DNA from: Basidioascus undulatus
Lineage: Eukaryota
Assembly (NCBI GenBank): GCA_000826855.1
Contig: JTLS01000003.1
Location: forward strand, 1 to 64,000
Direction: 5' to 3'
Length of the DNA: 64,000 bases
The notes under the pieces are model-generated. The model saw only the letters and a program-made list of their open reading frames with translations. It made no database searches and had not been told where the DNA came from. Position numbers and translations under genes: made by a program. Of the stretch, positions 16,620 to 31,177 are shown piece after piece (the stretch's first letter is position 1; the number at the start of each line of letters is the position of its first letter).

Positions 16620-19600
16620 ATGGAATTAAACGGTCTTCTCGATGGTGACGACACGCTCGACGCGCAGCAGTCTGCCGCGGGCGACGGTGGTGCGCTGAAG
16701 GGTAATGGGCTGCTGGAGGAGGATGAGCAGATGGAGGACGCGTCGGCCAGTGAGCCTGATCTTTCGCTCTCAGCTTGGATGACATCCGGCGAACTGCGCT
16801 CCTTACACGGGATGGATCGCTTTGAGACGCAGGTTCTGGAGCTGGCGGAGCGCTGGAGTCGAATGGCCTGCTCGACGAGCTCGACGATCCAGCAGCACCG
16901 GCGCCTGCTCCTGCCGTAGCCTCGATACCTCAACCTGCTTCCAGTGCGCCCTTTCCCGTTCCGGGCTCCACAGAATTGTTTTATAAACCTCCCGCGTCTG
17001 CTTTCTTTTCAGACGACTTCTCCTGCAACGGCCTCCTGGACGAGCCCGAACCCGCAGCCGGTACCTCGACCTCTTCCGCCGCTCCCTCTCTCCCCACCAC
17101 GTCTTCAACAGCCTTCGCATCCAACGGCTTGCTGGATGAAGAGCCATCGGACGATACGTCGAGCGCGCTCGCGGCGCTTCTCGACGCTGAAGCAGCGGGC
17201 GAACTGCGGTCCAATGGACTGCTGGACGAGCCGGGCCTTTCGAGGCTGTCGCGTGCGTGTTCATCCCTGTCTTGCTGCGTAGACGATAGAGCCTTACATG
17301 GTCGGGTGGGCAGCCTCGCCGTTTGCGTCCAATGGGCTCCTCGATTCCCCAAGCGACGCTCGGCGTCTTTCACGTCAGTCCCTCGCTCGACAATTGAACG
17401 CCCTGACCGAAACACTCAAGCCTGCTTCCTCAGCTTCCCCTCCGTCCGCCCCACGCACCTCCACCCACGCCGCCAGCTCCTCCACCTCCCTCTTCCACTT
17501 CGCCGTCCCCTCCACCTCCCCTCTTGCCTCCGGGACGATTCCCCTTGGCGCCGCGACCGGCAAGTCCTTCTCGGGTACGATGCTGCGCTTCGAGCGGCGG
17601 AAGAAGCTCGACGCGCTGCGGCAGGTCCGTTCGCTCCTCAACCATTTTCGCTGCTGGGGAATACCAGTCGCTGAACGACCTGCCGACAACAGAAAGCCTC
17701 CGCGTACGAGCAATCCGCCTCAGCGCGGGTGTCTTTGCTCGAGACGCCCATACACCGCCTGCTCGAAGAGCTCGAGTCCGAGCGCGCACTCGCCCCCGAA
17801 CGGTACGCTTTGCCAAAGCCCCCTTCGTGCCCCTCTTCCCCAGCGTCCTCACGCTACAACGCGTCAGACTCGCGGCCAACCTGCCGTCCAAGCCGCGGAC
17901 GCAGCAGACGCAGCTGTGGGTGGATCAATACCGCCCAAAGAAGTTCACGGATCTCCTGGGGGATGAGGTTGGCCTCCCTTCTTCCCGCTTAGGCTAGAAA
18001 AGGACGATCAGACGCTGATATGGGGAGGCGGGCAGCGCGTACACCGCGAGACGATGGCGTGGCTGAAGGAGTGGGACCAGTGCGTGTTCAAGCGCTGGCC
18101 GGCTAAGGCGAAGCGGCAGAGAGACGATAAGGAGAACTTTGTGAGCCCCTCCTCATTTCTGCATCCTCATGCCAGCTGGAGCGTTATTGAAACTCCCACG
18201 CACAGGTCTACCGCGACCCAATGGGACTGGGCCGACCGCAAGAACGGGTGAGTGCTCTCGACGTGCAGCACAGCGGCGGTAGGAGCTGAAACGGGGTGTG
18301 ATGGTGGCGGCAGATCATGCTCGTCTCCGGCCCACCCGGCCTAGGCAAGACGACCTTGACGCACATCGTGGCGCGGCACGCGGGCTACCGAGTCTTCGAA
18401 GTGAACGCCTCGTTCGTGTGCCCTTTCTTCCCTTTCCTTCCTCCATCCTGCCGCCGCCCGCTGACGATAGGCTGGTGGTACAAGGGACGACCGCTCGGGC
18501 AAGTCGGTCGAGGACCGCGTGCGGACGGCGCTCGAGACGGCGAGTATCACGCAGGAGGGCACGACGGACACGAGGCCGACGCTCATTGTCATTGATGAGA
18601 TCGATGGCGCGAGTGGAGGGGAAGGCGGCGGGGTGAGCGATGGGTTTCCAGAAGACGGCGGAGCGAAATTGCTGATGCGTTGAGGGACAGAGCTTCATCC
18701 GACAACTCCTCAAGCTCATCCAGGACGTTCCGGCGAAGAAACGTCAGTCGGCGTCACCGAATTTCTGGCTCCCCTGTCCATTTCACTCACCGCAGGACGT
18801 GATCCTCATACAGGCATAAACGGCACCAAATCCGAAGCAAAAGCGCTCCTCCGCCCGATCATCTGCATCTGCAACGACCTGTTCGTCTTTCCCTCCCTGC
18901 CATCCCATTCCGGCTGCCATTGCCCGGCTCACCCGCTCTTGCCCCTGGCAGGTACGCGCCCTCGCTCCGACCGCTCCGCTCCGTCGCGCGCCTCGTCCGG
19001 TTCAAGAAACCGCCCACGGCGGCGCTTGTCGCGCGCTTGCGCGAGGTGTGCGCACAGGAGCGCCTCGCAGCGGACACGCGCAGCTTGAGCCTTCTCGCGG
19101 AGGTGACGGGCGGGGATATCAGGAGCTGCTTGAACACTCTGCAGGTGGGTGTCCTGTTCCTATCCATCAGATCCTCTTATTTTAGGTTTCTGACGACCGT
19201 TGGATGGATCACGAGCAGTTCATCAAGTCCAAGTCCGACTCCGTCACCGAGGCGTCTCTCCGCGCCGCGGCGGTCGGGAGCAAGGACTCGGGCTCGTCCG
19301 TCCACGTCGTGTGGGACCGCCTGTTCCGTCCGCCGGGGAAGAAGGACAAGAAGACGATCGGGCTCGGGGAGAACGCGAAGAAGGACGCCGAGGACGGCAA
19401 GTTCGTGTCCCGCCTCGTGCACGAGCTCGTTTCCTGCGGGGAGTACGACAAGGTCTCGCAAGGTCCGTTGCCGTTTTTCCGCCCTGTCCTGGGCCCAGGC
19501 GAAGCTGGATGCTAAACGCGCGATGTTGTGGGGCACAGGCTGTTTTGAGCACTATCCGAGCCTGCGCGCGACGGACGCAGGGTGGACGAAGTACGTCGCG

Positions 19601-20927
19601 GCGCACGACTGGCTCGCGTTCACCGACCGCCTATCGAGCGCCGCGTACGCGGAGCGGGAATATGAGATGCTCGGGTACATGCCATACTCGCTCGTGTCGT
19701 GGTACCATTTCTTCAACAGCGTGTCAAACACGGTGGTCGCGTACCCGAATACGGACTATGAGGTGCGTCTTTCTTCATTGATACCCTTGGCGTACGTTGC
19801 CTGATAGCTAGCGCCTCTCGGCGTCTCCGCAACAGAGCTACCTCAAGCGCCAGACGAACGAGGAGATCGCCGGCCAGCTCCGGCAGGCGCTCCCCCCGAC
19901 GCTGAGCTCCGCCTTCAACCGAACGACCGTCTGCACCGAGCTCGCGCCGCTACTCATGCGCATCGTGTCGGCCAACCTCAAGCCCGTGCGTGGTAGCTTC
20001 CCAGGCTCAACGTTGAGACTTTCTGGCGATGCTGACTGCAGCTGTTGGAATGACAGGTCAACCAGCAAGTGGTGAAGCCCGAGGAGAAGGCTGCGCTCGT
20101 GCACGTCGTGGACGTTATGCTCGCGCTCAAGCTTGCATTCGTTCAGGACAAAGGAGAAGATGGGCAGATCGTGTACCGCCTCGAGCCGTGCGTGGCTGAC
20201 CCGCTCGCTATCAGGCTTGAGCTCCCCCGGCTAATTGGATACCTGTTTGCCAGGCCAATCGACGTCTTCGTCCACTACGAAGGCAAGCGCGCAGCGGACA
20301 TCGCTGTCTCGCGGTATGCCGTCCGGCACCTGGTCGCTCGCGAGGTATACGATGGTTCGGCCGGTCGTCGAGTCCCGCAGGGAACTGACTGCTCTTCCGA
20401 ACGCGACCCCAGATGGATGCCGAATTGATCCGCCGGCAGGAGAAATCTGGCGGGGGCCCGGCGAAGGACTCGGCTGCAGCGATCAAGGCGAAAGCGTGCA
20501 CTGCTCGCGATCATCTTCAGCAAAGACTGCCACGCTGACATCTCCATCCACCCCTGCAGCAAACCTGCGGAGAAGGTCGAAGCGACCGAAAGGGTGCGTC
20601 TTCACTCCAAGCTGGTCAACGAGTGTCTAGCGAGCTTTACTGACATGGCATGCGCAGCCCCCGACCGACTTCTTTGGCCGTCTCATTGTGCCCAAGGCCG
20701 CGCCCGGCGACTCGTCGGCATCTATCACGGCTGGCTCCGATTCAGCAGTAGCCGGTACGCCTTATCGTTGCCTTGGATTTGCACATCCACTATGCTGATA
20801 ACTGTACTATATGTCGGGGGCTGCAGGCGCGCCGCCTCCTGCCAAGAAGTTCCGCGCATTCTACAAGTACCACGAAGGATTTTCGAACGCTGTCCGAAGG
20901 CCTGTCAAGATGTCCACGTTGCTCTGA
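16620..20927 (+). CDS. CTF18: Chromosome transmission fidelity protein 18 (RFC1-like clamp-loader subunit)
   Basis: [93 protein letters not shown] and terminal [19 protein letters not shown]. Confidence 0.95.
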
Positions 20928-23686
20928 TCTTACCATGCTGATGCGTTCATACATGGGTTTAAATGCTTTGCAGCTGTGTGCCGACGAAGGACATGCAGTC
21001 TAGAGTTGCTGCCACGGGCATGCTGCAGGCTGCTGTCGGCTGAAAGTTACAGTTTTTCGCGGCTGCGGTTAGGTACCTTCTTTCAGGCAGCCTGTCTGCT
21101 GCGCACCAATCTCTAGCTGCCAGTGAAGACGATGATGCGCTTTAACGGAACGGTCTTTAATTCTGCCAGTGCACTCGGTATCTGTTCAAGCTGCCCCTGC
21201 GCCTTGCAGAGTCGAAGGCAGCACAACGCGGCGGGACCGTGATTGCTCTCATGGCGTTGCAGCACTTGCCACATCCGCGTGTATGCCATGTCTGTCACCT
21301 TTGCCACGATTTGCCACATGGCTGCATGAGGCTGAGAAACTTAAGGGAGTTGACGAGGTTTTGTTCGCCCACGTGGATGCGCCACGCACAAGCCACAGCG
21401 CAGGCGGCACAGGCAGCAGTCAGTAAGAGCTCTCGACTGCGGCTGTATCGCAGCTCGGTTGCGCGTGGTGTTGCCTTTCTTGTGAAAGCCGCTGGAGTAC
21501 GGATCCAAATCAGATTCTCCCAGTCTGGGCGCATCGACCTGCTGCCGGGGTGCCACGATTCAGGCCAGGCCTTGGAACTCACAAATTTTCGCAGCTGTAA
21601 TAGAGATCACAGTCAATGATGGGATCTGCAACATGAATTGGTAAATAGCCTGGCAGTGCTGCAAGGGACGGCGCAACTTCTCACTGTCAAACTCAGAAAC
21701 ATTGCTCGCCTATCTCTTGCAACTCCAGTTCATCATTAGAGGAGAAGGACTTTCGAGGTATAGAATAGGGAGTATGCATTAAAAGTGCTCTGTAATGTCG
21801 GTATGTCGCCTAAGAATCTGCCAGAATCTGTTACAGTAGCAGCTTCAGCGCGAACCGATGCACGAAGTTTCACTCGGTTCTGCAGGCAGCGGTCGAAGGG
21901 CAACTCCATGATGCCCATGCTGGGCGCTCACTTGCAGAATCCTGAGCATATGTTCATTTCTGCTGTTCTGCTGACATTCTGTTCGTCAGACGAAGAGTAA
22001 GCAGTGTGTCCTGTACCCTCCCTCGGGCCAGCGACTGTTGTGTCATGACGGTTCAGCAGTATATCTACCGTACTCCCCATTTCTCACTCTTCCAAAGAAA
22101 ACTTGTGTGTAACATGTTCAGTCGATAAGAAGTCGTAAAAACGGCTAGTAACACCTGTGTTTCGACTAATTGCAGCGCCTTCCGGACGTCCGCAATTAGC
22201 AAAGCCTGATTCACATTTGCAATCGCAAGATGTGATCTTTGGGAGAGTAAACGGAGATTGTGGAGCTGTTTGCAGGATATTCACCCCAAGCGCTGTGCCC
22301 ACGTCGACGTTGAAGTTGCCGAACGACAGCTGGCCCTTCGAGCTGAACTGGAAAGCAAAAGCAGGAGGCGTCAGCCAAGCAGCGAGAGTGCTCACACAAC
22401 CTCGCGCAATAGAACTGACAAGAGGGAGACAAAAGCTTCAGATAGCTGAACCCGCGACAGAGGATTTGCGCAGCGCAACTAGAAACTCACCGAACCGAGG
22501 GAGGAGTACCTTGCAGATCTGTCAAGCCGATGATCGCTCAGCCGGCGGGAGCTGATGATGATCCCAGGCGGGTTCCTTCGATCAATGCCATTATCGTCTC
22601 CGGAAGTACTTCTGTTACCCGACGACGGAAAGTATTCGGTTGAGGTTGGAGGAGGTGTCCTCCTCTGGCGTTGAGGGCCTGAGGCTCGCGGCATCGACAA
22701 GCAGTCTTGGCTGGCACCAGTTCCTGCAGAGTCCCGCTCTCGAAAGCCCCCAACATCGGCGTCGTCCGCATTATCTTTATAGTTTCAGAGTCTCGGGCGC
22801 TGCTGATAATATGGCGAGCACGCGGGCGACACACGATGAGGCTGACAGAGTGATACTATTAGTGATACCGCCGGCTGACGAGTCTGAAGGAGTCTTGACC
22901 GGCCGGCCGTTGTCCGCATGCAGATCATGCGCGATGGCAACGGCAAGGGCACTGTTGGAGCAGGAGCCGTATCTCGGCCGGCGCTATTGTGTAAACACCA
23001 TCCTGGTCGGAGCAAGACGGAACGGTCCTTCATCTGGCGGAGTCGGGCCATACCCTGCAGCTTGCTACAACATCACGCCAATGTCCGTTGAAAGTGCTTC
23101 ATGTGAGGCATCGATATTCGGCCGTATGCACGCCCAGAAAGCTATCGCAAATGTCCGGTATGATAGGCGGAGAAAGGCGATCAACACTCGTCAGACCAAT
23201 CAAGCCCCAGAAGACTCGAAGAGAGCTTTCAGAGCTGTTCTCGCTGTGCACTGTACTGCCGATGACGACCACCTTCTTTTCAAGCCAGCGCCGCACCTCC
23301 AGAGAATGGAATGATGCGGTGCAATGAGCTGTTGGCAACAACTTGTACTTTTGACAGGCACTTGCGCCAGACAAGTCCAACGAGCACGCAGGCAGTCTTG
23401 CACACTGCAGGCGCCGCAAATATAAGACAACAGATGACTGCGTTCAACATGCCTAAGAAGTGATGTGACAGAAGCGACGGGAAAATGGGAAGATGCGATG
23501 CGAGGGACAGAATTAAGAGAAAGCATAGGAATGAGGGTAACAAATGAGGCATGCAGCGGAATGACAGATGGATGGGCAGGGCAGCAAAAGTGAAGAAACG
23601 GGCGCATCAAGCGCAAACGAGTGACTGGGAGGAAGAGGGCAGGCAGGGAGGGAAGAGGAAGGGGAAGAGTCCAGGAGAGTGCGGGC

Positions 23687-26609
23687 TTATGCGCCCAGGC
23701 GCGGCGAGTCCTCGAAGTTGAGGTACGCGCCAAAGTAGCCGAGCGCGGCGCTATCCTTCTCGGACGCGGAGAGCGCGTCGTCCGACTCGTAGCGCTCGTA
23801 CGGAGCGGGGTGGACGCCCGAGTCCGCCGCGAGGGGCGCCTCGGCGCGCGGCCTGCTCGCAGCGTCGGCGGCGCTGAAGGTCGCGAAATCGGCGGGGGAG
23901 TGGAGAGCGGGCGGGTAAGACGTGTGCGGAGAGTGCGCGTCGTGTGCGTACGCGTTTGTCGTCATCCAGCTCATCGTGTGCGCGGCCGAGTCTGCCCCAG
24001 GCGTGACAGCGCCGTGGTCGTGCGAGAGGTAGGGCGAGGGAGGGGGGAGGACGGGGTTCGCGCTCGTGGGATCCGGGGCGTAGACGACAGCCGAAAAGCT
24101 CGGGTTCCACTCCGGGTTGACCGGCCACGACTCGGGCGTGGGGTGGCGGTGGTGACGGGGCGCGGGCTGGCTGATGACCGGAGGTTGGAGGGGGGTGTGG
24201 ACGACTTGGAACGCGGGCGTGATCGGGTCGTGCTCGCCGTCCGAGCTGTGCGCGCTGTGCGTCGAGCTCGCGGAGAGGGGGACGGCGAGGCCGTCGCCGG
24301 TGGTCGCTTGGAGGTGCGCGCTGTGCGGGGGTATGCTGACGCTCAGGCGCAGCCGGTTTGGGTCGCGCCGGGCGGTCGACGCGCTGAAGCCGTGTACGGA
24401 GACCGGGCGGGCGAAGCTCGACTGCGAGGGGGGTATAGGGCTGGGCGCGACGACGTTGAGCGTGGGCGCGTGCAGCTCGGCGGGGCGGCGCATGAGGTAC
24501 GAGAGCGTGACGGAGCCGCCGTCCGCGGAGGGTTGACCGCTCGGCGAGTCCGGGACCATCTCGAAGTCGTACACGACGACGAGCACGACCTGGCCGATCT
24601 CGGCGGCGCGGCACGACTTGACGCCCGACGGGCCCGGCGACGGAACCGTCTCGGATGGGACGACGAACTCCTGCACCATCGAGAGGGCGCTGAGGGGCGA
24701 GGCGAAGTCGGCGCGCTCCGCGGCGGACTTTGCGAAGATTTTGCCGGGGCGACCGCCGCCGTGGCCGACCTGGCCGCCGAGAAAGCCCGCGAAGAAATCG
24801 CCGCCGAAAGGAAGGCCGTAGGAGAACTTGTGGGTCGAGGAGGCTGAGCTTGACGTAGACGGCGAGGAGGGGTTGGAGCCGTCGAACGACGCGCGGCGGT
24901 GCTGCGGCGCGAGGCGGTCCGGGCGAGCCAGCGACTCCTCATAGCCGAGAACGCGAGCGCCGAAGGAGTAAAAGTTGGTCACAGCCCTGAAGGAGAGAAA
25001 TGACAGTATCAGTTGTGAAAAATGAACAGCGCGGCCGGTTGGCATACATGAGCGGAACGTCCTGAGCGCCGGTCAGGGACATCTGCGCCGAGACGCCGTC
25101 GAAGTGATCGATGGCGTACATCTCGCTGCTGGGGAGGGCGAGACGGATGCGGGCGTGCATGAAGGGGCACTTGAGGTCCTCGTACATCGCGCCGAGGCCG
25201 GGATAGCGCGCCTCGCCGAGGGGGAGCTCCTCGACGTAGACGGTCGTGCGCGGCGTGGAGCCGACCGCAATGGACGGGCAGAGCTCGGTGTAGACGTGCG
25301 CCGTGTCGTGCTGCTCGCCGTGCGCCCAGATGCTCAGCTTCCACGGAAGGAGCATCGGGCGAGTCGGATCGCCGCTGGACGGAGGCGTGTCGGGCAGAGA
25401 GGGCGGCATGGGGAACTGGGGCGTCATGTCGGCGATGGCGTGGGAGAGGCTCGAGGTCGTGCTCATGGGCACGCTCGCGGGGCTGTGGTCGCGATGATAC
25501 GAGCCGTCGTACGAGTGCGAGCGCTGCATCTCGACAGGGGCGAAGCAGGGCGAGTGCTCGGCCGGGGGGCCGTAAGGAGAGTGCAGCTCGGGCGTGACCG
25601 TCGAGGTCGGCGAGGGGGTGCAGAGGTACGGGGCGGGAGCGTGGGGGTGGACGTGAGCCGCGGGCGATTGCGCTGCGCCGGCCGACATCTTGGCCTGGTA
25701 GTGCAGCAGCATCGGCTGCAGCGACGACTCCTCCTCCGCAGTCGGCTCGCCGACAAGCCACATGACTGTCAAGGTCGAGGGTGTGGATATGAGCAAGAGC
25801 TTCAAGCAGCTTCGAGCGTTATCCAGGCGGAAAGAGGGCTTACAGTGTGCGTCGTTCCGGCGGACATTCTTGAGCACCTGGATGTGGCTCGAGACCTGCT
25901 TGCGCGACCGCACGACGCCCGTGCGCATCTTGATGAAGTTGGCGATGAGCTCGTTGCGGCCGCAAGGCTTGCCGTGGACCATGACCTTGCGCCTGCCGAG
26001 ACGAGGAACAGACACGAGCGCTGCGAAAGGGAAGGTACGAGTCAGTCACGACGCGTCCCCGATCGCGTTTGATAAGTTTCGGGCACACCTTCGTAAAATG
26101 CCTCGTCCACGTCCGGCGGCCAGACCTCGTCGTTCTTGCTGTCCGGCAGCACGACAATCCCGCCCGCCGCAGGGCCCGTCGTCGCCGAGTCGGCGTCGAT
26201 GCCGAGGGCAGCCAGACCGGCAGGCGAGCCCGCGCTCGGCGCGTCGAGGTCGGCCGGCGCGGTCCTCCGCCGCTTCATCTCGGGTCGAGGAGAGCTGAAC
26301 GGCGCGAGGAGCTGGTTCTGGGGCGGGTGGGTGACGAGCGGCGAGTGGTCGAAGAGCGGTTTGGGCTTGGACGGGTCACGAGCGGGCGGGTGACCATGAT
26401 GCGCGACCGCCGGGAGACCCTCCTGCACAGGCGGACACTGGTCGTGGCTCGATGCGCGACTGCGAACCTGGTGCGCGGTGCCGCCCGGGAGCTCGTGCGG
26501 GCCGAGGTGCGAGTGGTCGCGCTTGCGGTTCGGCGTCTCGAGCTGGATATTGGCGAAGTGCTGCTGGAGCGCCGGGGAGGGAAGGAAGTTGTAGGAGGCA
26601 GTGGAGTGC
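23687..26609 (-). CDS. TEA/ATTS-domain transcription factor (Tec1/AbaA/TEAD family) with TEAD-like C-terminal domain; continuous in frame with the upstream GPAT
   Basis: EVWPPDVDEAFYE|AL..VPRLGRRKVMVHGKPCGRNELIANFIKMRTGVVRSRKQVSSHIQVLK is a canonical TEA domain; stop at 23687. The 5' boundary is approximate. Confidence 0.92.
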
Positions 26610-28677
26610 GTGGGCGCCTTGAGGTACTGCGATACGGCGGCGAGGTCGTAGTCCCACTTCTTGGGCAGCCAGACGCCGACCAGCACGCGCCACGCCGCCA
26701 TGACCCGCTTGAAGCCGTTGTACTGTTCGAGCGATACACGATTCTCATCAGCGATTTGTCTGGGTTTAGAGGGACAGGACAGCAGTGGGATTGGTAAGAG
26801 AAGGGCACGCACGTTGTCGTCGATCAAGCTAACATGGTACACCGCGAACGCCCACACCGCCGCAGCGGCGACGATCGCACCGATCGGGCTAAGGAACAGG
26901 AGCGCCCAAACCGCGAGGAACAAGACGGGGTACGTGAGCACCGTCAACAACAAGCCAAACACGATCTTGTTCTGCGCCTGGGTCTCCACCTCGTGCTCGA
27001 CTATCTTCCCGCCCAAGCGCGCAAGGATGTACGCGGGGGCGTGTACGAGGAGGGGGAGGGCGAAGAACGGCAAGCGGACGAGGGAAGCGAGGGACGTGCC
27101 GATGAGGGAGAGGAACGTGGAGAGCCGCGTGGGGAGGGGGTACGGGTGGTATGGGTCTAGAGGGCGCGGGAGGGGAAGGGAGGAGAGCGTGCTGTGCGTG
27201 AGGGACGTGCGGGAGAGGAGCGCGGAGTAGGTGATGAGCGTGGATTTGAGCTTGGAGAGCTGCGGGGAGGGGGAGGGCGTCGAGAGGAGGTCGACCAGCC
27301 TGGGGGAGAGGGAGGGGCGTGAGCTGAACGTGTGGAGAGGGTGGGGGAAGGGAGGAGGACGCACACTTGCGAAACGGGAACGAAGTCTTCCAGCGGCAGG
27401 TCCCGCTCGTCCTCCCACAGCATCTCGCGCGCCATCTTAGCCGCGTAGAAGGTGTCCCTGCGATCGCCCCACCGAACAGTCAATACCCCACCTTCGTTCC
27501 AGCCCAACATAGCACGACGCACCAGTCAGGCGCGTTGATCGTCAGCTTGCGGAGCTCCGACTCGATCCGCGCCGAGAGCTTCTTGACCGCCGCCTTCGGG
27601 TCGACCGAAAGGAACTCCTTCTCGAACTCGGTCATGTAAATCGGCTTCCCGTACCTGTCTCCCTCACACCCACAAATCAGCTCCTCCTTCCCCTTCGCAG
27701 CGCTCAAAGAAACCAAAACAAACAAGCACGCACTCAACGACCGCGCGACTGCGGTACTTGCTCTTGTTGGTGTACGTGATCCCGCACGGCACAACGGGGA
27801 CGTCCTTCCCGTGCTCGATGTGGTTGTCGACGACGTACTTGGTGTACTCGAGCGCGGCCCACGACACGCCGTCCTTGATGCCCAGGATGGACGGGGAAGT
27901 GTACGACGTCCCCTCGGGGAAGATCGCGACGACCTCGCCGCGCGCGAGCGCATGGAACGTCCCCTTGAAGAGAGCTTGGTTGTCCTTGTTCTTTCGGTCG
28001 ACGGGGATGTTGCCCGCGTCCAGAAGACTGGAGGGAGGGGCTGGTAAGTCCCGGACGGAGGGAGGGGCCAGGAGGGGAGGGAGGGGAGGAGACGAACATG
28101 GCGCGCACGGCGGGGACTTTGAACAGACTGTCCTTCGCCCAGTAGTGCACGCATCGCGCGCCGGGGAATGTGCATGCTGTGAGGAGGGGAGACGTCAGTA
28201 TGGGGGGTTAACGGGTGGGCGATGAGGCAGGGCGAGCGAGCGTACACAGCGTTGCGGGGTCCACTGCCATGTTGTGGTGGGACGAGGCGCTGCGGAACAG
28301 CCGAAGACAGAATCAGCATCGTCGGAACAACGCCGGGCTCTCACAAGAGCTTTGGAGATGTAGGTCCCTCGGCCGAGAGCAACTGTGTCTTTCGACCTCC
28401 CCATCGAATACCACTCCCCACTTAGCTGTCGATCTCCTCGTCCTCAACCTCCCAGAACTCCATTTCCAGCGCCCAGTCGACCTTGACCCCAGCGAGCCCA
28501 GCGTCCAAGATTCCCGCGTGGTCGTGCGAGCGCTCACACGATGACGCCCCCCTCGCGGGGGACGTTGTCGCCGTTGACGACCTCGACGCGCTGGAAGAAC
28601 GAGTAGAGCGCCCAGCTCGCGAGGTGCCGGATGAAGTAGTGCGTGTACCCGAACCCGGTCGCGGCGGTCGCGGGCAT
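26610..28677 (-). CDS. Glycerol-3-phosphate/DHAP O-acyltransferase (SCT1/GPT2 family), no stop codon of its own
   Basis: HHNMAVD (HxxxxD), HYWAKDSLF, GNIPVDR, IFPEGTSY, GIKDGVSWAALEY, VVPCGITY, LTINAPDW, then transmembrane segments and AAWRVLVGVW. Confidence 0.9.
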
Positions 28678-28896: not shown

Positions 28897-31177
28897 ATGC
28901 CTAAACACGCATGCTTAATCCTCGTTCCCCACTCCTCCCCCGCCGCCTTCCCCGCCCATCAACACGAGCCCACGTCGCGCATCTCGAAGCGCCGTAGCTT
29001 CCTTCCCCTTGACGCGGTGCCCATGGGCCTCGGCCTGTCCAGCATACCACTCTCGGCGCCGATGCTCGGGTCGCCCATCGGTGAGGAGGAGGAGCAGTTC
29101 CCCAGTCCCGGGCTGGAGGGGCAGCGAAGGCAGGCGCTCTACTCTGCCGGCTTCAGGGTAATCATGTCCTACCTTCGAGATGTGCGTGTCAACCTCTTGT
29201 CTGCAACCGCGCTTAGAGCAACGTCCTGACTTTTCCATCAATGCAGCTGCACGACCTCGGCGCCGGCGGCGAGGACGACGAGCCCGCCTCGCACCCTCCG
29301 TCCTCCGCCTCGCGATACGGCTCGATCGGGTCCAACACGCGCCCGAGCATGGGCCGCTCTGCAACCAACTCGAGCCTCGCGTCCCGGAACCCATCCGAGT
29401 CGAGCTTGGGCGTCGGCTCGTCCGCGCGCACGACGTTGAGCGAGTCGTCCGATGAGCGCCCGTCCGTCGGCTCCAATGGCGACGCGATCAAGCACAAGGA
29501 TGACCCGGCGCGGAGAGAGAAGATCGTCAGGGAGATTATCGAGTGAGTCGCGCCTGGTTCTTTGCGTTGGTAGTATGTTCGTCGGGGAGCTGGATGATGA
29601 TGGGTGGGCATCGCAGGACCGAGCGGACTTACGTGCGCGGCCTGGCGGAGCTCACGGAGATCTACGTCAAGCCGAGCGCGCTCGAGGTGCCCGCCGTCGA
29701 GCGCAAGATCGTCTTCAACGGCGTCGAGAGCCTGCTTACGTTCCACCGCGAGTCGTTCCTCCCCGCGCTCGAGAACGCCGCCGCGTCGCTGCTCCTCTCG
29801 GCGCGCCCCGCGGACGTCAGCCGCGAAGAGTTCTCACTCGAGATTGCCAGCCAGGTCGCGCTCGTGTTCTGCAAGCACGCGGCGTTCTTGAAGATCTACT
29901 CGTCGTATATCAAGTGCGTATTTGTTCCTTCAGATGAGCGCTCTTGGCTTGGCTCGAGAGAAGGAACTGATCGGGATGGTGTTCACAGCAACTTCGACTC
30001 GGCTCTTCTGCGCCTGACGCACTGGAGCAGCAAGGACTCGGGCTCCGCGCGCTCGAGCCCCGCCATGTCGCCCAGCTCGACCCAGCTCTCGTCCCTGACG
30101 ATCAGCACCGGCTCTGTCTCGCCCGTCGCAATGCCCGCGACTCCCGCCGCCGCGAGCGGCTCTCCCATCCCCGCGAAGGAGCGCAAGCGCATCCGCCAGT
30201 TCCTTAAGGCCGCGCGCAAGCACCCGCGCCACGCGCAGCTCAACCTGGAGAGCTACTTGCTCCTCCCCGTGCAGCGCATTCCGCGGTACCGGCTGCTGGT
30301 GCGTTGATCCTTCTTGTCGAGGGGAATGAGGGGTGGGACTGACAGAAGGCGTGGGGACGCAGCTGGAGGACTTGGTCAGGTGCACGCCGCCCAAGACGGA
30401 CCCCCTCGCCTTCGACCCGCTCGCCAGCGGTCTTGAGCAGATCTCGGCGCTCGCAAACGACATGAACGAGGGCAAGCGCGATGCCGAGGGCCGGAACCGC
30501 CTTGTGCAATGGCAATGTGCGTTTCGCGCTTGCGCTGTGCCAACACACCGGCGCCGTACTGACAGATCCGCACTGATCCACCCACAGCCCGCATTCGCGG
30601 CAAGTTCCCCTCGCCGCTCGTCCAGCCCCACCGCCGCCTCCTGCTCGACGGCGGCCTCGTCCTCACGCGCGTCGTCAAGCGCACCGTCGCGTTCGTCGAG
30701 GTCGACTCGGGCGACGGCAGCCGCGGCGGCGACGAGCACAAGTCGGTCGTGCAAGTCGACTGCCTCCACCAGGAGAGCGCGCAGAGCAAGCCGCTCGTTG
30801 GCCTCCTCTGCACGGACCTCATGGTCCTCTGCAAGGACCCCTCCCGCGGCATGGACCAGACGAGTCCCGTCGACCTGTACGCTGTGCTCCGGCTCCAGAA
30901 CACGAGCCATCCGGCCGTGGTTCACGGGAGCAGTACGTTTTCGTTCTTTTTGTGGGGGGTCGAAAAAGCGTTTGCTGATCTCGTTCTGGTACTCATTGCA
31001 GCTTTGCGGATCGTCGATTCGCGCGCTATCCTTTACCTCGACTGCGCGGACGTCTCTGCTGCGCTCACCTGGGCACAAGGTTCGTTTCCTTTCTACTCAT
31101 CTCACCTGCACTATTTCAAGCTTAACAATCGTGTTCACGCCCTTGCAGCCATCAACAACGACATGTCGTCCTGGTGA
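28897..31177 (+). CDS. Rho guanine-nucleotide exchange factor (DH plus PH-like domain); start uncertain
   Basis: REKIVREIIE|TERTYVRGLAELTEIYVKP, FLKIYSSYI|NNFDSAL, LESYLLLPVQRIPRYRLL|LEDLVRCTP, LVQPHRRLLLDG; stop TGA at 31175-31177. Confidence 0.9.

Follow-up and report, generated by a model that had tools for sequence, protein, structure and literature searches.

The 64-kb window analysed here, by which is meant the whole stretch of DNA presented (64,000 nucleotides of contig JTLS01000003.1 of Basidioascus undulatus), contains on its minus strand an open reading frame (ORF) in which the catalytic and membrane core of a glycerol-3-phosphate acyltransferase (GPAT) is continued, without a stop codon, by a TEA transcription factor. 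With a probability of about 0.5, we consider this ORF to be a real genomic fusion of the deletion type, encoding a chimeric TEA factor anchored in the endoplasmic reticulum (ER); this reading takes the assembly as correct and the ORF as translated. The continuity of the ORF, the presence of the two homologies in one exon, the coding bias of the linker, the loss of the GPAT tail and the absence of the fusion from the relatives were observed directly.

Direct reading combined with exon-end anchoring gave an 11-exon model on the minus strand (28677–23687), open over 1365 codons (4098 nt) with no internal stop, from an ATG at 28677–28675 to a stop codon at 23689–23687. Nine of the ten accepted introns (61–248 nt) showed GT-AG ends directly, and the fifth did so after a 1-base shift of its boundary which left the protein unchanged. 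Since the frame was kept through all 11 exons, the base-level sequence quality at the locus looks good. A Pfam scan of six pieces of the ORF, taken by single exons with cut-offs of 23 bits for PF01553 and 25.1 bits for PF01285, detected the Acyltransferase family PF01553 on exon 4 alone (27736–28026, 35.9 bits, E 7.7e-09) and the TEA family PF01285 at 25845–26018 (71.4 bits, E 7.6e-20); no Pfam family was matched by the other four pieces, the junction exon (exon 8) included. The features of the locus were as follows.

Exon 1, 28538..28677, minus strand: GPAT N-terminus with the start codon, matched in tblastn by residues 1–47 of GPAT homologue P0124 and residues 3–41 of P0143.
Exon 2, 28246..28289, minus strand: acyltransferase motif HHNMAVD (HX4D-type).
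Exon 3, 28098..28176, minus strand: GPAT, from the gene model and tblastn.
Exon 4, 27734..28027, minus strand: GPAT catalytic core with GNIPVDR, FPEGTS and VVPCGITY; Pfam PF01553.
Exon 5, 27523..27654, minus strand: GPAT; boundary set 1 nt over for a GT-AG intron.
Exon 6, 27365..27457, minus strand: GPAT, from the gene model and tblastn.
Exon 7, 26813..27299, minus strand: GPAT membrane region, with 57% identity to homologue P0122 over query residues 1–162.
Intron 7, 26723..26812, minus strand: 90 nt, GT-AG, in frame and stop-free; homologues are contiguous across it (IDDNY / INDNY).
Junction exon (exon 8), first 33 codons, 26624..26722, minus strand: last GPAT-homologous residues (YNGFKR...AVSQY), with a GC content at third codon positions (GC3) of 0.97.
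Exon 8, mid-linker of 99 codons, 26327..26623, minus strand: codon usage of coding type in the fused frame; P, H, S and A are abundant.
Exon 8, end, 26089..26326, minus strand: N-terminal region of a TEA protein with the RPEMKRRRTAP box, GLAALGID and NDEVWPPDVDEAFYE, the last being the first residues of the TEA domain.
Exon 9, 25844..26020, minus strand: core of the TEA/ATTS DNA-binding domain; Pfam PF01285.
Exon 10, 25048..25765, minus strand: disordered region and first half of a domain predicted to resemble the YAP-binding domain (YBD) of TEAD, from tblastn of P0002 residues 180–464 and the fold of this homologue.
Exon 11, 23687..24986, minus strand: second half of the YBD-like domain, long disordered tail and stop codon, from tblastn of P0002 residues 451–610.

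Introns 7 (26723–26812, 90 nt) and 9 (25766–25843, 78 nt) are multiples of three and stop-free, and retention of either keeps the frame; therefore raw stop-to-stop ORFs cross them (26042..27436, 464 aa; 24939..26045, 368 aa). Intron 8 (26021–26088) contains an in-frame stop at 26042, and its retention would give a product with the GPAT core, the linker and the TEA N-terminal box and without the DNA-binding domain, ending in ...AFYEGVPETYQTRSGTRRD-stop.

Exon 8 (26722–26089) consists of 211 stop-free codons, beginning with YNGFKRVMAAWRVLVGVWLPKKWDYDLAAVSQYLKAP... directly after the 90-nt intron and running to the donor at 26089/26088. The first-pass annotation of this locus had reported a frame open for about 170 codons into the TEA domain, in agreement with the position of EVWPPDVDE at codon 199, 161 codons after ...KAP. 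With six GPAT homologues of full length and a fragment as tblastn queries against the 64-kb window, the GPAT homology was seen to span exon 7, cross intron 7 and end in exon 8 at 26624 (...AVSQY), a point equivalent to residue 433 of 642 in P0122, 462 of 643 in P0124 and 76 of 257 in P0203. The homology to TEA proteins starts at 26326, as shown by BLASTP of exon 8 against the best TEA relatives: residues 133–211 of the exon aligned with residues 97–172 of P0002 from Wallemia mellicola (56% identity, E 4e-16), and residues 146–211 with residues 109–175 of P0003 from W. ichthyophaga (60% identity, E 8e-15). The end of the GPAT homology and the start of the TEA homology are within one exon and in one frame, so that splicing of the annotated introns is unable to separate the halves.

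The coding character of the 99 codons between the two homologies was assessed with a codon table for which 722 homology-supported codons from this locus served as the training set. In the fused frame, the scores of the three thirds of the linker were +1.13, +0.56 and +0.44 bits per codon, and either of the other frames gave negative values; the known exons gave +1.03 ± 0.32 in frame (minimum +0.43) and at most −0.06 off frame. The coding-like bias claimed for the linker in the first-pass annotation was thus borne out in every third. The GC content of the linker was 0.69, as compared with 0.59 for the introns and 0.53–0.58 for the flanks, GC3 kept one phase all the way through exons 7 and 8, and there is no intergenic-like DNA left between the halves; nothing resembling non-coding DNA was found other than the 90-nt intron 7, which agrees with the intergenic space having been described as missing. 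Residues ~457–555 of the product are a disordered, codon-biased linker. It is the phase-locked codon bias, together with the two homologies in one exon, that carries the observation.

No in-frame ATG was present between the GPAT homology and the conserved TEA box, and no in-frame stop between the halves either. The Met of EMKRRR at 26278 had been described as the sole in-frame Met ahead of the TEA domain; this holds for the sequence after ...KAP, while a second one (RVMAAW, ~26701–26699) is located inside the GPAT-homologous part. Moreover, the EMKRRR Met (26278–26276) corresponds to an internal position conserved among basidiomycete TEA proteins, and is therefore no sign of a start site. A gap boundary at about 26610, named earlier as a sign that would speak against the fusion, was not there: the window contains no N, and so no gap at the junction. 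The junction 33-mer was unique in the window and no repeat was found at the junction, which is without a visible mark of a gap or of a collapsed repeat.

The join is co-oriented and in frame, has no leftover non-coding DNA and leaves both halves otherwise intact, which speaks for a real event. A random chimeric join would need co-orientation, a frame match and a coding-to-coding contact at once; this is an argument from prior expectation.

The GPAT half contains, in the spliced product, the acyltransferase motifs HHNMAVD (residue 51), GNIPVDR (93), FPEGTS (124) and VVPCGITY (166), which were read against the sequences we take to be catalytic motifs I–IV (HX4D-type; GxxxVDR; FPEGT; motif IV). 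Motifs I–IV are named for GPAT acyltransferases in an excerpt of PMC7613133. The only hydrophobic segments of the 1365-residue product (residues 324–352 and 371–422, Kyte-Doolittle) are encoded by exon 7, upstream of the junction, and the membrane region showed 50–57% identity to homologues. Among the 120 listed of 177 GPAT relatives (408–714 aa), the best were stand-alone agaricomycete GPATs with PF01553 alone or no recorded Pfam family and 50–53% identity. From these similarities, residues 1–456 are assigned as the complete catalytic and membrane core of an ER-type GPAT, without the C-terminal tail and the stop codon. The affinity of this half is to the Agaricomycetes (~50–53%), no Wallemia protein being found among the 120 listed.

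The TEA half was collinear with the Wallemia TEA proteins up to residue 610 of 839, with 43–46% identity. The RPEMKRRRTAP box recurs in the Wallemia and microbotryomycete TEA proteins and, in a weaker form, in Ustilago. The relatives have ~95–130 further residues upstream of the box, at which they start, and the TEA half of the window protein has no initiator Met of its own. Structures of TEAD DNA-binding domains were matched in profile searches with E 1e-29 to 1e-30. In the model of P0002 (mean predicted local distance difference test score, pLDDT, of 57) the folded blocks were at ~160–260 and 365–608, and the C-domain matched TEAD YAP-binding domains in Foldseek (E 5.9e-13, probability 1.00, target TM 0.63–0.73). 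Because of the collinearity with P0002 and the match of the P0002 fold to the TEAD YBD, the TEA half appears TEAD-like in its overall architecture, which for the window protein itself is only partly secured. The Pfam scan of the six pieces did not detect PF17725 in it, and a basidiomycete-only profile reached no YBD chain at E ≤ 1; a broader profile reached YBD chains at E 7e-07, and this profile includes five Mucoromycota sequences carrying PF17725. A single-sequence search of the PDB with the last exon gave no match at E ≤ 1. Residues ~556–1365 are accordingly described, by similarity, as an otherwise complete Wallemia-like factor of the TEAD type (RPEMKRRRT box, TEA domain, putative YBD-like beta domain and long tail) that lacks a start codon.

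Some further features of the TEA family emerged from the same comparisons. Identity to other basidiomycetes was 30–36%, as against 43–45% to Wallemia, and no close relative of B. undulatus seems to be present in the protein collections. A beta-rich C-domain resembling the YBD of animal TEAD, a domain with a lipid pocket, was predicted in basidiomycete TEA proteins at residues 365–608 of P0002, equivalent by homology to ~25400–24485 of the window, and contains a near-invariant Cys (C425 of P0002; DLKCPFMH in the window protein). PF17725 was recorded only for Mucoromycota among the 120 listed TEA relatives.

Several results weigh against a real fusion, the first being its absence from the relatives. 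Not one of the 389 relatives retrieved carried both halves when compared by local BLAST with five ORF pieces (263 had the GPAT part and 122 the TEA part), in line with the earlier statement that no such fusion was known. PF01553 was found in none of the 120 listed TEA relatives (of 398 at E ≤ 0.001), and PF01285 in none of the 120 listed GPAT relatives (of 177). Two metagenome scans, one with the junction exon alone and one with an alignment, gave 179 and 252 pattern matches, none of which was confirmed.

The second is what has been lost. In 120 GPAT homologues no shorter than 540 aa, the part following the position equivalent to AVSQY was a strongly conserved tail with a median of 177 residues (range 78–259), in which an RHVLRxR-type motif was present in 110 of the 120 and a second motif, [FL]LxxxG[AG], in 104. 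The pattern of this domain in basidiomycete homologues is RHVLRxR...FLxxRGA. In the AlphaFold2 model of homologue P0124, calculated from a 57-sequence alignment (mean pLDDT 84.7, predicted template modelling score 0.85), the tail consisted of a disordered spacer (483–516) and then a confident helix-and-strand domain at ~520–620, with pLDDT blocks of 83–96; therefore the window gene has lost a conserved folded domain and not merely a floppy end. Loss of the tail from what is possibly the main ER GPAT would also be expected of a deletion artefact or of a crippled allele.

The third concerns the linker, which contains the weakest patch of codon bias of the whole ORF (~26490–26357). A 35-codon window there had a GC3 of 0.686, and none of the 883 windows elsewhere was as low (mean 0.905, minimum 0.771). 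In addition, an open frame is cheap in GC-rich DNA: when the 534 nt that follow AVSQY were shuffled 2000 times with their dinucleotides kept, 394 of the resulting sequences were stop-free in that frame.

The absence of the tail, already suspected in the first-pass annotation, was confirmed in that the RHVLRxR-type motif was missing from the fused sequence and that a profile of the GPAT tail, run over the window in six frames, gave no match (best E 0.079, in an unrelated plus-strand ORF). The tail of basidiomycete ER GPATs has a predicted fold beyond its disordered regulatory region, with invariant L537, R540 and L547 (P0124 numbering).

Other searches for the fusion were made more widely. When exon 7–exon 8 was used as the query against 1.84 billion representatives in an exhaustive profile-free search, 170 hits were obtained, and the matches listed among them had the GPAT part alone or the N-terminal part of TEA proteins alone (P0193, P0205), none having both. 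Comparison of the junction exon with longer proteins gave 3070 candidates and 0 matches at E ≤ 0.001, and in the ESM Atlas its best score was 0.77, with nothing usable. No second GPAT or TEA locus was found in the 64-kb window, which has one of each, and no report of a GPAT-TEA fusion was found in the library of literature searched.

Among the 120 listed TEA relatives, three were long models in which the N-terminal part belongs to a different family (PF08584, PF07978 or PF01425), in no case GPAT; therefore GPAT-TEA adjacency is not a known conserved arrangement. The entries concerned were those of Malassezia cuniculi (PF08584), M. caprae (PF07978) and a metagenome-assembled genome of Cyphobasidiales (PF01425), beside which an entry from Ceraceosorus was named PTPLA-like; the handles of the four are P0065, P0069, P0103 and P0051. 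Such long models could have arisen by the merging of gene models or could represent additional TEA fusions; to judge from them, a TEA gene whose N-terminal region is long and open is evidently prone to being merged with its neighbour upstream. A merged model of neighbouring genes is the predictor's choice, whereas the fusion in the window is in the DNA itself, in one exon and without stop, ATG or spacer.

The low-bias patch could be explained as the remnant of a once non-coding sequence, as a rapidly evolving disordered region or as an in-frame intron that has gone unrecognised. In 12-codon windows the GC3 was 0.83–1.00 on either side of it, adjoining the GPAT and the TEA homology. All GT...AG pairs of 42–260 nt in 26640–26300 were listed, and no credible hidden intron splitting the halves was found among them. 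No pair combined a CAG acceptor with a CTRAY branch, and those with better donors were in frame or shifted to frames without coding bias and without an early stop. The 45-nt in-frame candidate intron of the first-pass annotation does exist, 2 nt away from where it had been placed, at 26467–26423; it lacks a CTRAY-like branch motif, and each of the ten accepted introns is longer. A 102-nt candidate (26467–26366) coincides with the low-bias patch and has an AAG acceptor, seen in none of the ten accepted introns, with TGAC 13 nt from its end. Both candidates are multiples of three and hence unable to break the fusion.

A TGA at 26378 and an ATG at 26397, the latter out of frame and the only ATG in the patch, were also considered as the GPAT stop and the TEA start, brought out of register by two compensating indel errors. 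This candidate was rejected: the ATG lies upstream of the stop, two errors are needed and no spacer is left.

The linker resembled neither protein family beyond chance. In Smith-Waterman comparisons with four Wallemia N-termini it scored no better than shuffles, the observed score being reached by 886, 530, 547 and 906 of 1000 shuffles; the same was the case with 107 TEA N-termini and 118 GPAT tails, where 30 and 28 of 60 reached the observed mean. A MAFFT alignment of the Wallemia N-terminus on the linker is therefore not evidence of homology.

A stop-free run alone is weak evidence and not beyond chance, and ORF length alone is not to be trusted in this GC-rich genome. Runs of at least 178 stop-free codons numbered 71 in the six frames of the window. 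One stop-free run, of 417 codons, is antisense to the TEA tail (23594–24847, plus strand).

The alternative that survives best, somewhat unlikely in our estimation, is an artefact of assembly: two separate genes, whether or not they are neighbours, from which ~1–2 kb was dropped by collapse, or two contigs wrongly joined, with an in-frame ORF by accident. The dropped stretch would comprise one or more GPAT tail exons with the 3′ UTR, the DNA between the genes, and the 5′ UTR and start of the TEA gene. The deletion or mis-join near 26610 that the first-pass annotation offered as an equally serious explanation is equally alive, the GPAT homology stopping at 26624 and the conserved folded tail being gone. 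The missing parts are exactly the end of one gene and the start of the next, namely the folded GPAT tail and the TEA start, and an accident of this kind would agree with the occurrence of the fusion in no relative, with the low cost of open frames in this DNA, with the anomalous low-bias patch and with a GPAT-TEA adjacency that is not known as conserved, the merged TEA models (3 of 120 listed) carrying other families. It is opposed by the sequence at the join, which shows neither an N nor a repeat nor a duplication of the junction sequence, by the good appearance of the base-level quality with 11 exons in frame, and by the join itself, since a random mis-join would be co-oriented and in frame, with coding bias in one phase throughout, in a few per cent of cases.

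Quite unlikely is a correct DNA sequence from which the halves are mostly made as separate products. The TEA mRNA would then start in intron 7 or in the junction exon and be translated from the Met at ~26701 (MAAWRV...), which has G at −3 and +4, or from that at 26278 (MKRRR...), and the GPAT could be ended in a fraction of the transcripts, for instance if intron 8 with its in-frame stop is retained (...AFYEGVPETYQTRSGTRRD-stop at 26042). Two in-frame Met codons are thus available, and a TEA factor welded to a membrane enzyme would otherwise require a release mechanism, of which none is in evidence. Against this, nothing non-coding-like is present that could serve as a promoter except the 90-nt intron 7, in which an out-of-frame ATG precedes the Met at ~26701; the Met at 26278 is the conserved internal residue described above, preceded by coding-biased codons; and no normally spliced form provides the GPAT with a stop. 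Finally, chance read-through of a non-coding spacer that happens to lack stops, with the gene ends unrecognised, would accord with the 20% of stop-free shuffles and the low GC3 at 26490–26357 and is highly improbable, as the codon log-odds were positive in the fused frame and negative off frame in every third of the linker, high GC3 adjoins both homologies on either side of the patch, and there is neither an in-frame GPAT stop nor a usable TEA ATG, that at 26397 being out of frame.

Neighbouring genes commonly become fused in evolution by losing the spacer that separates them. For the fusion favoured here, the origin would have been a deletion between two co-oriented neighbouring genes, which would have taken out the tail domain of the GPAT, the 5′ end of the TEA gene and the DNA lying between the two, and which would have been in frame by chance or by selection. 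The data fit such a deletion, whether in the organism or in the assembler. The hydrophobic segments of the GPAT would hold the resulting chimera in the ER membrane, and the linker and the whole TEA moiety would, by analogy with Gpt2, be cytosolic. In yeast Gpt2 both termini are cytosolic, and the tail at the C-terminus, likewise in the cytosol, is regulated by phosphorylation (PMC7613133, in excerpt), so that a C-terminal TEA moiety would be on the right side of the membrane. The TEA part would reach the nucleus only after cleavage within the ~100-residue disordered linker, upstream of the KRRR box, or through an internal start. Such a logic of release would be analogous to that of Mga2/Spt23, without homology, and is entirely hypothetical. 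The idea of a tethered factor, put forward in the first-pass annotation, is favoured by the position of the hydrophobic segments upstream of the junction and by the conservation of the basic box, and disfavoured by the lack of the fusion in the 389 relatives.

GPAT, which catalyses the first step in the synthesis of glycerolipids, consumes acyl-CoA. A stronger proposal, which we regard as doubtful, is that the fusion is not only real but also old and functional, with the GPAT acting as ER anchor and sensor and the TEAD-type factor being released to the nucleus by a proteolysis of the linker that depends on lipid or acyl-CoA status. Such a pairing would then be a 'Rosetta-stone' link between two modules that handle acyl chains, the handling of lipid by the fungal YBD-like domain being assumed by analogy with animal TEAD. 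The titles of the PDB entries 5emw and 5oaq, which were among the Foldseek matches, refer to animal TEAD YBD with covalently bound palmitate or myristate, and autopalmitoylation of TEAD is described in an excerpt of PMC9643419.

If the fusion is real, an essential enzyme of lipid synthesis has been welded to a developmental factor of the TEAD type, in an architecture seen in none of the 389 relatives, and would represent a new type of ER-tethered transcription factor with an enzyme as its anchor. The logic of the fusion would point to a link between glycerolipid or acyl-CoA metabolism and TEA/TEAD signalling and, as animal TEADs are lipid-modified, this link would be of interest beyond fungi. 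It would also mean that fungal GPATs can do without their conserved folded C-terminal domain or can have it replaced. If the fusion is an artefact, it is an example of how an assembly loss of 1–2 kb can create an in-frame, codon-biased 'fusion' in GC-rich fungal DNA.

In the vicinity of the locus, an ORF with a RhoGEF domain (PF00621, E 1.6e-21) was found at 29504–30307 on the plus strand, divergent from the GPAT start. A weak match to an RFC1-like AAA-lid (23.7 bits, below the cut-off of 34.9) was located downstream of the TEA end, at 18803–19804 on the plus strand.

In comparison with known systems, the GPAT half shares the core motifs, PF01553 and the two hydrophobic regions with the fungal ER GPATs of the Sct1/Gpt2 type (basidiomycete homologues of 560–734 aa, e.g., P0273 from Hydnum rufescens and P0122 from Auriculariales), its putative orthology to yeast Sct1/Gpt2 being drawn from the source names of the homologues and from Pfam. 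These enzymes have a conserved folded C-terminal tail, in place of which the window protein has a TEA factor of 900 aa. The TEA half shares with the Wallemia TEA proteins P0002 and P0003 the TEA domain, the RPxMKRRRTxP box and the GLAALG...NDEVWPP region and, unlike them, has no start codon of its own and is joined to a membrane enzyme; the ~96 residues before the conserved box in P0002 have no detectable counterpart in the window protein. Animal TEAD and fungal Tec1/AbaA are more distant TEA/ATTS factors.

SREBP/Sre1 is a transcription factor anchored in the ER membrane and released by processing. Mga2/Spt23 are made as an ER-anchored precursor which is processed by the proteasome, according to excerpts of bioRxiv 10.64898/2026.08.31.748402 and PMC7005026. 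The window protein is, on its domain content, not assigned to either family: no homology to Mga2/Spt23 or SREBP was found, the Pfam scan of the six pieces giving only PF01553 and PF01285 and no IPT/ankyrin or bHLH domain, and no processing signal, Rsp5-type motif or cleavage signal was identified in it, the conserved basic KRRR box being the only feature seen. At the level of the ORF, a membrane anchor and a transcription-factor domain are nevertheless combined in one polypeptide, the predicted chimera. It would resemble Mga2/Spt23 and SREBP in mode only, as a lipid-linked factor held at the ER by hydrophobic segments and facing the cytosol; the anchor in the window protein is N-terminal and a whole enzyme, whereas Mga2/Spt23 have a C-terminal tail anchor and SREBP a system with a sterol-sensing partner.

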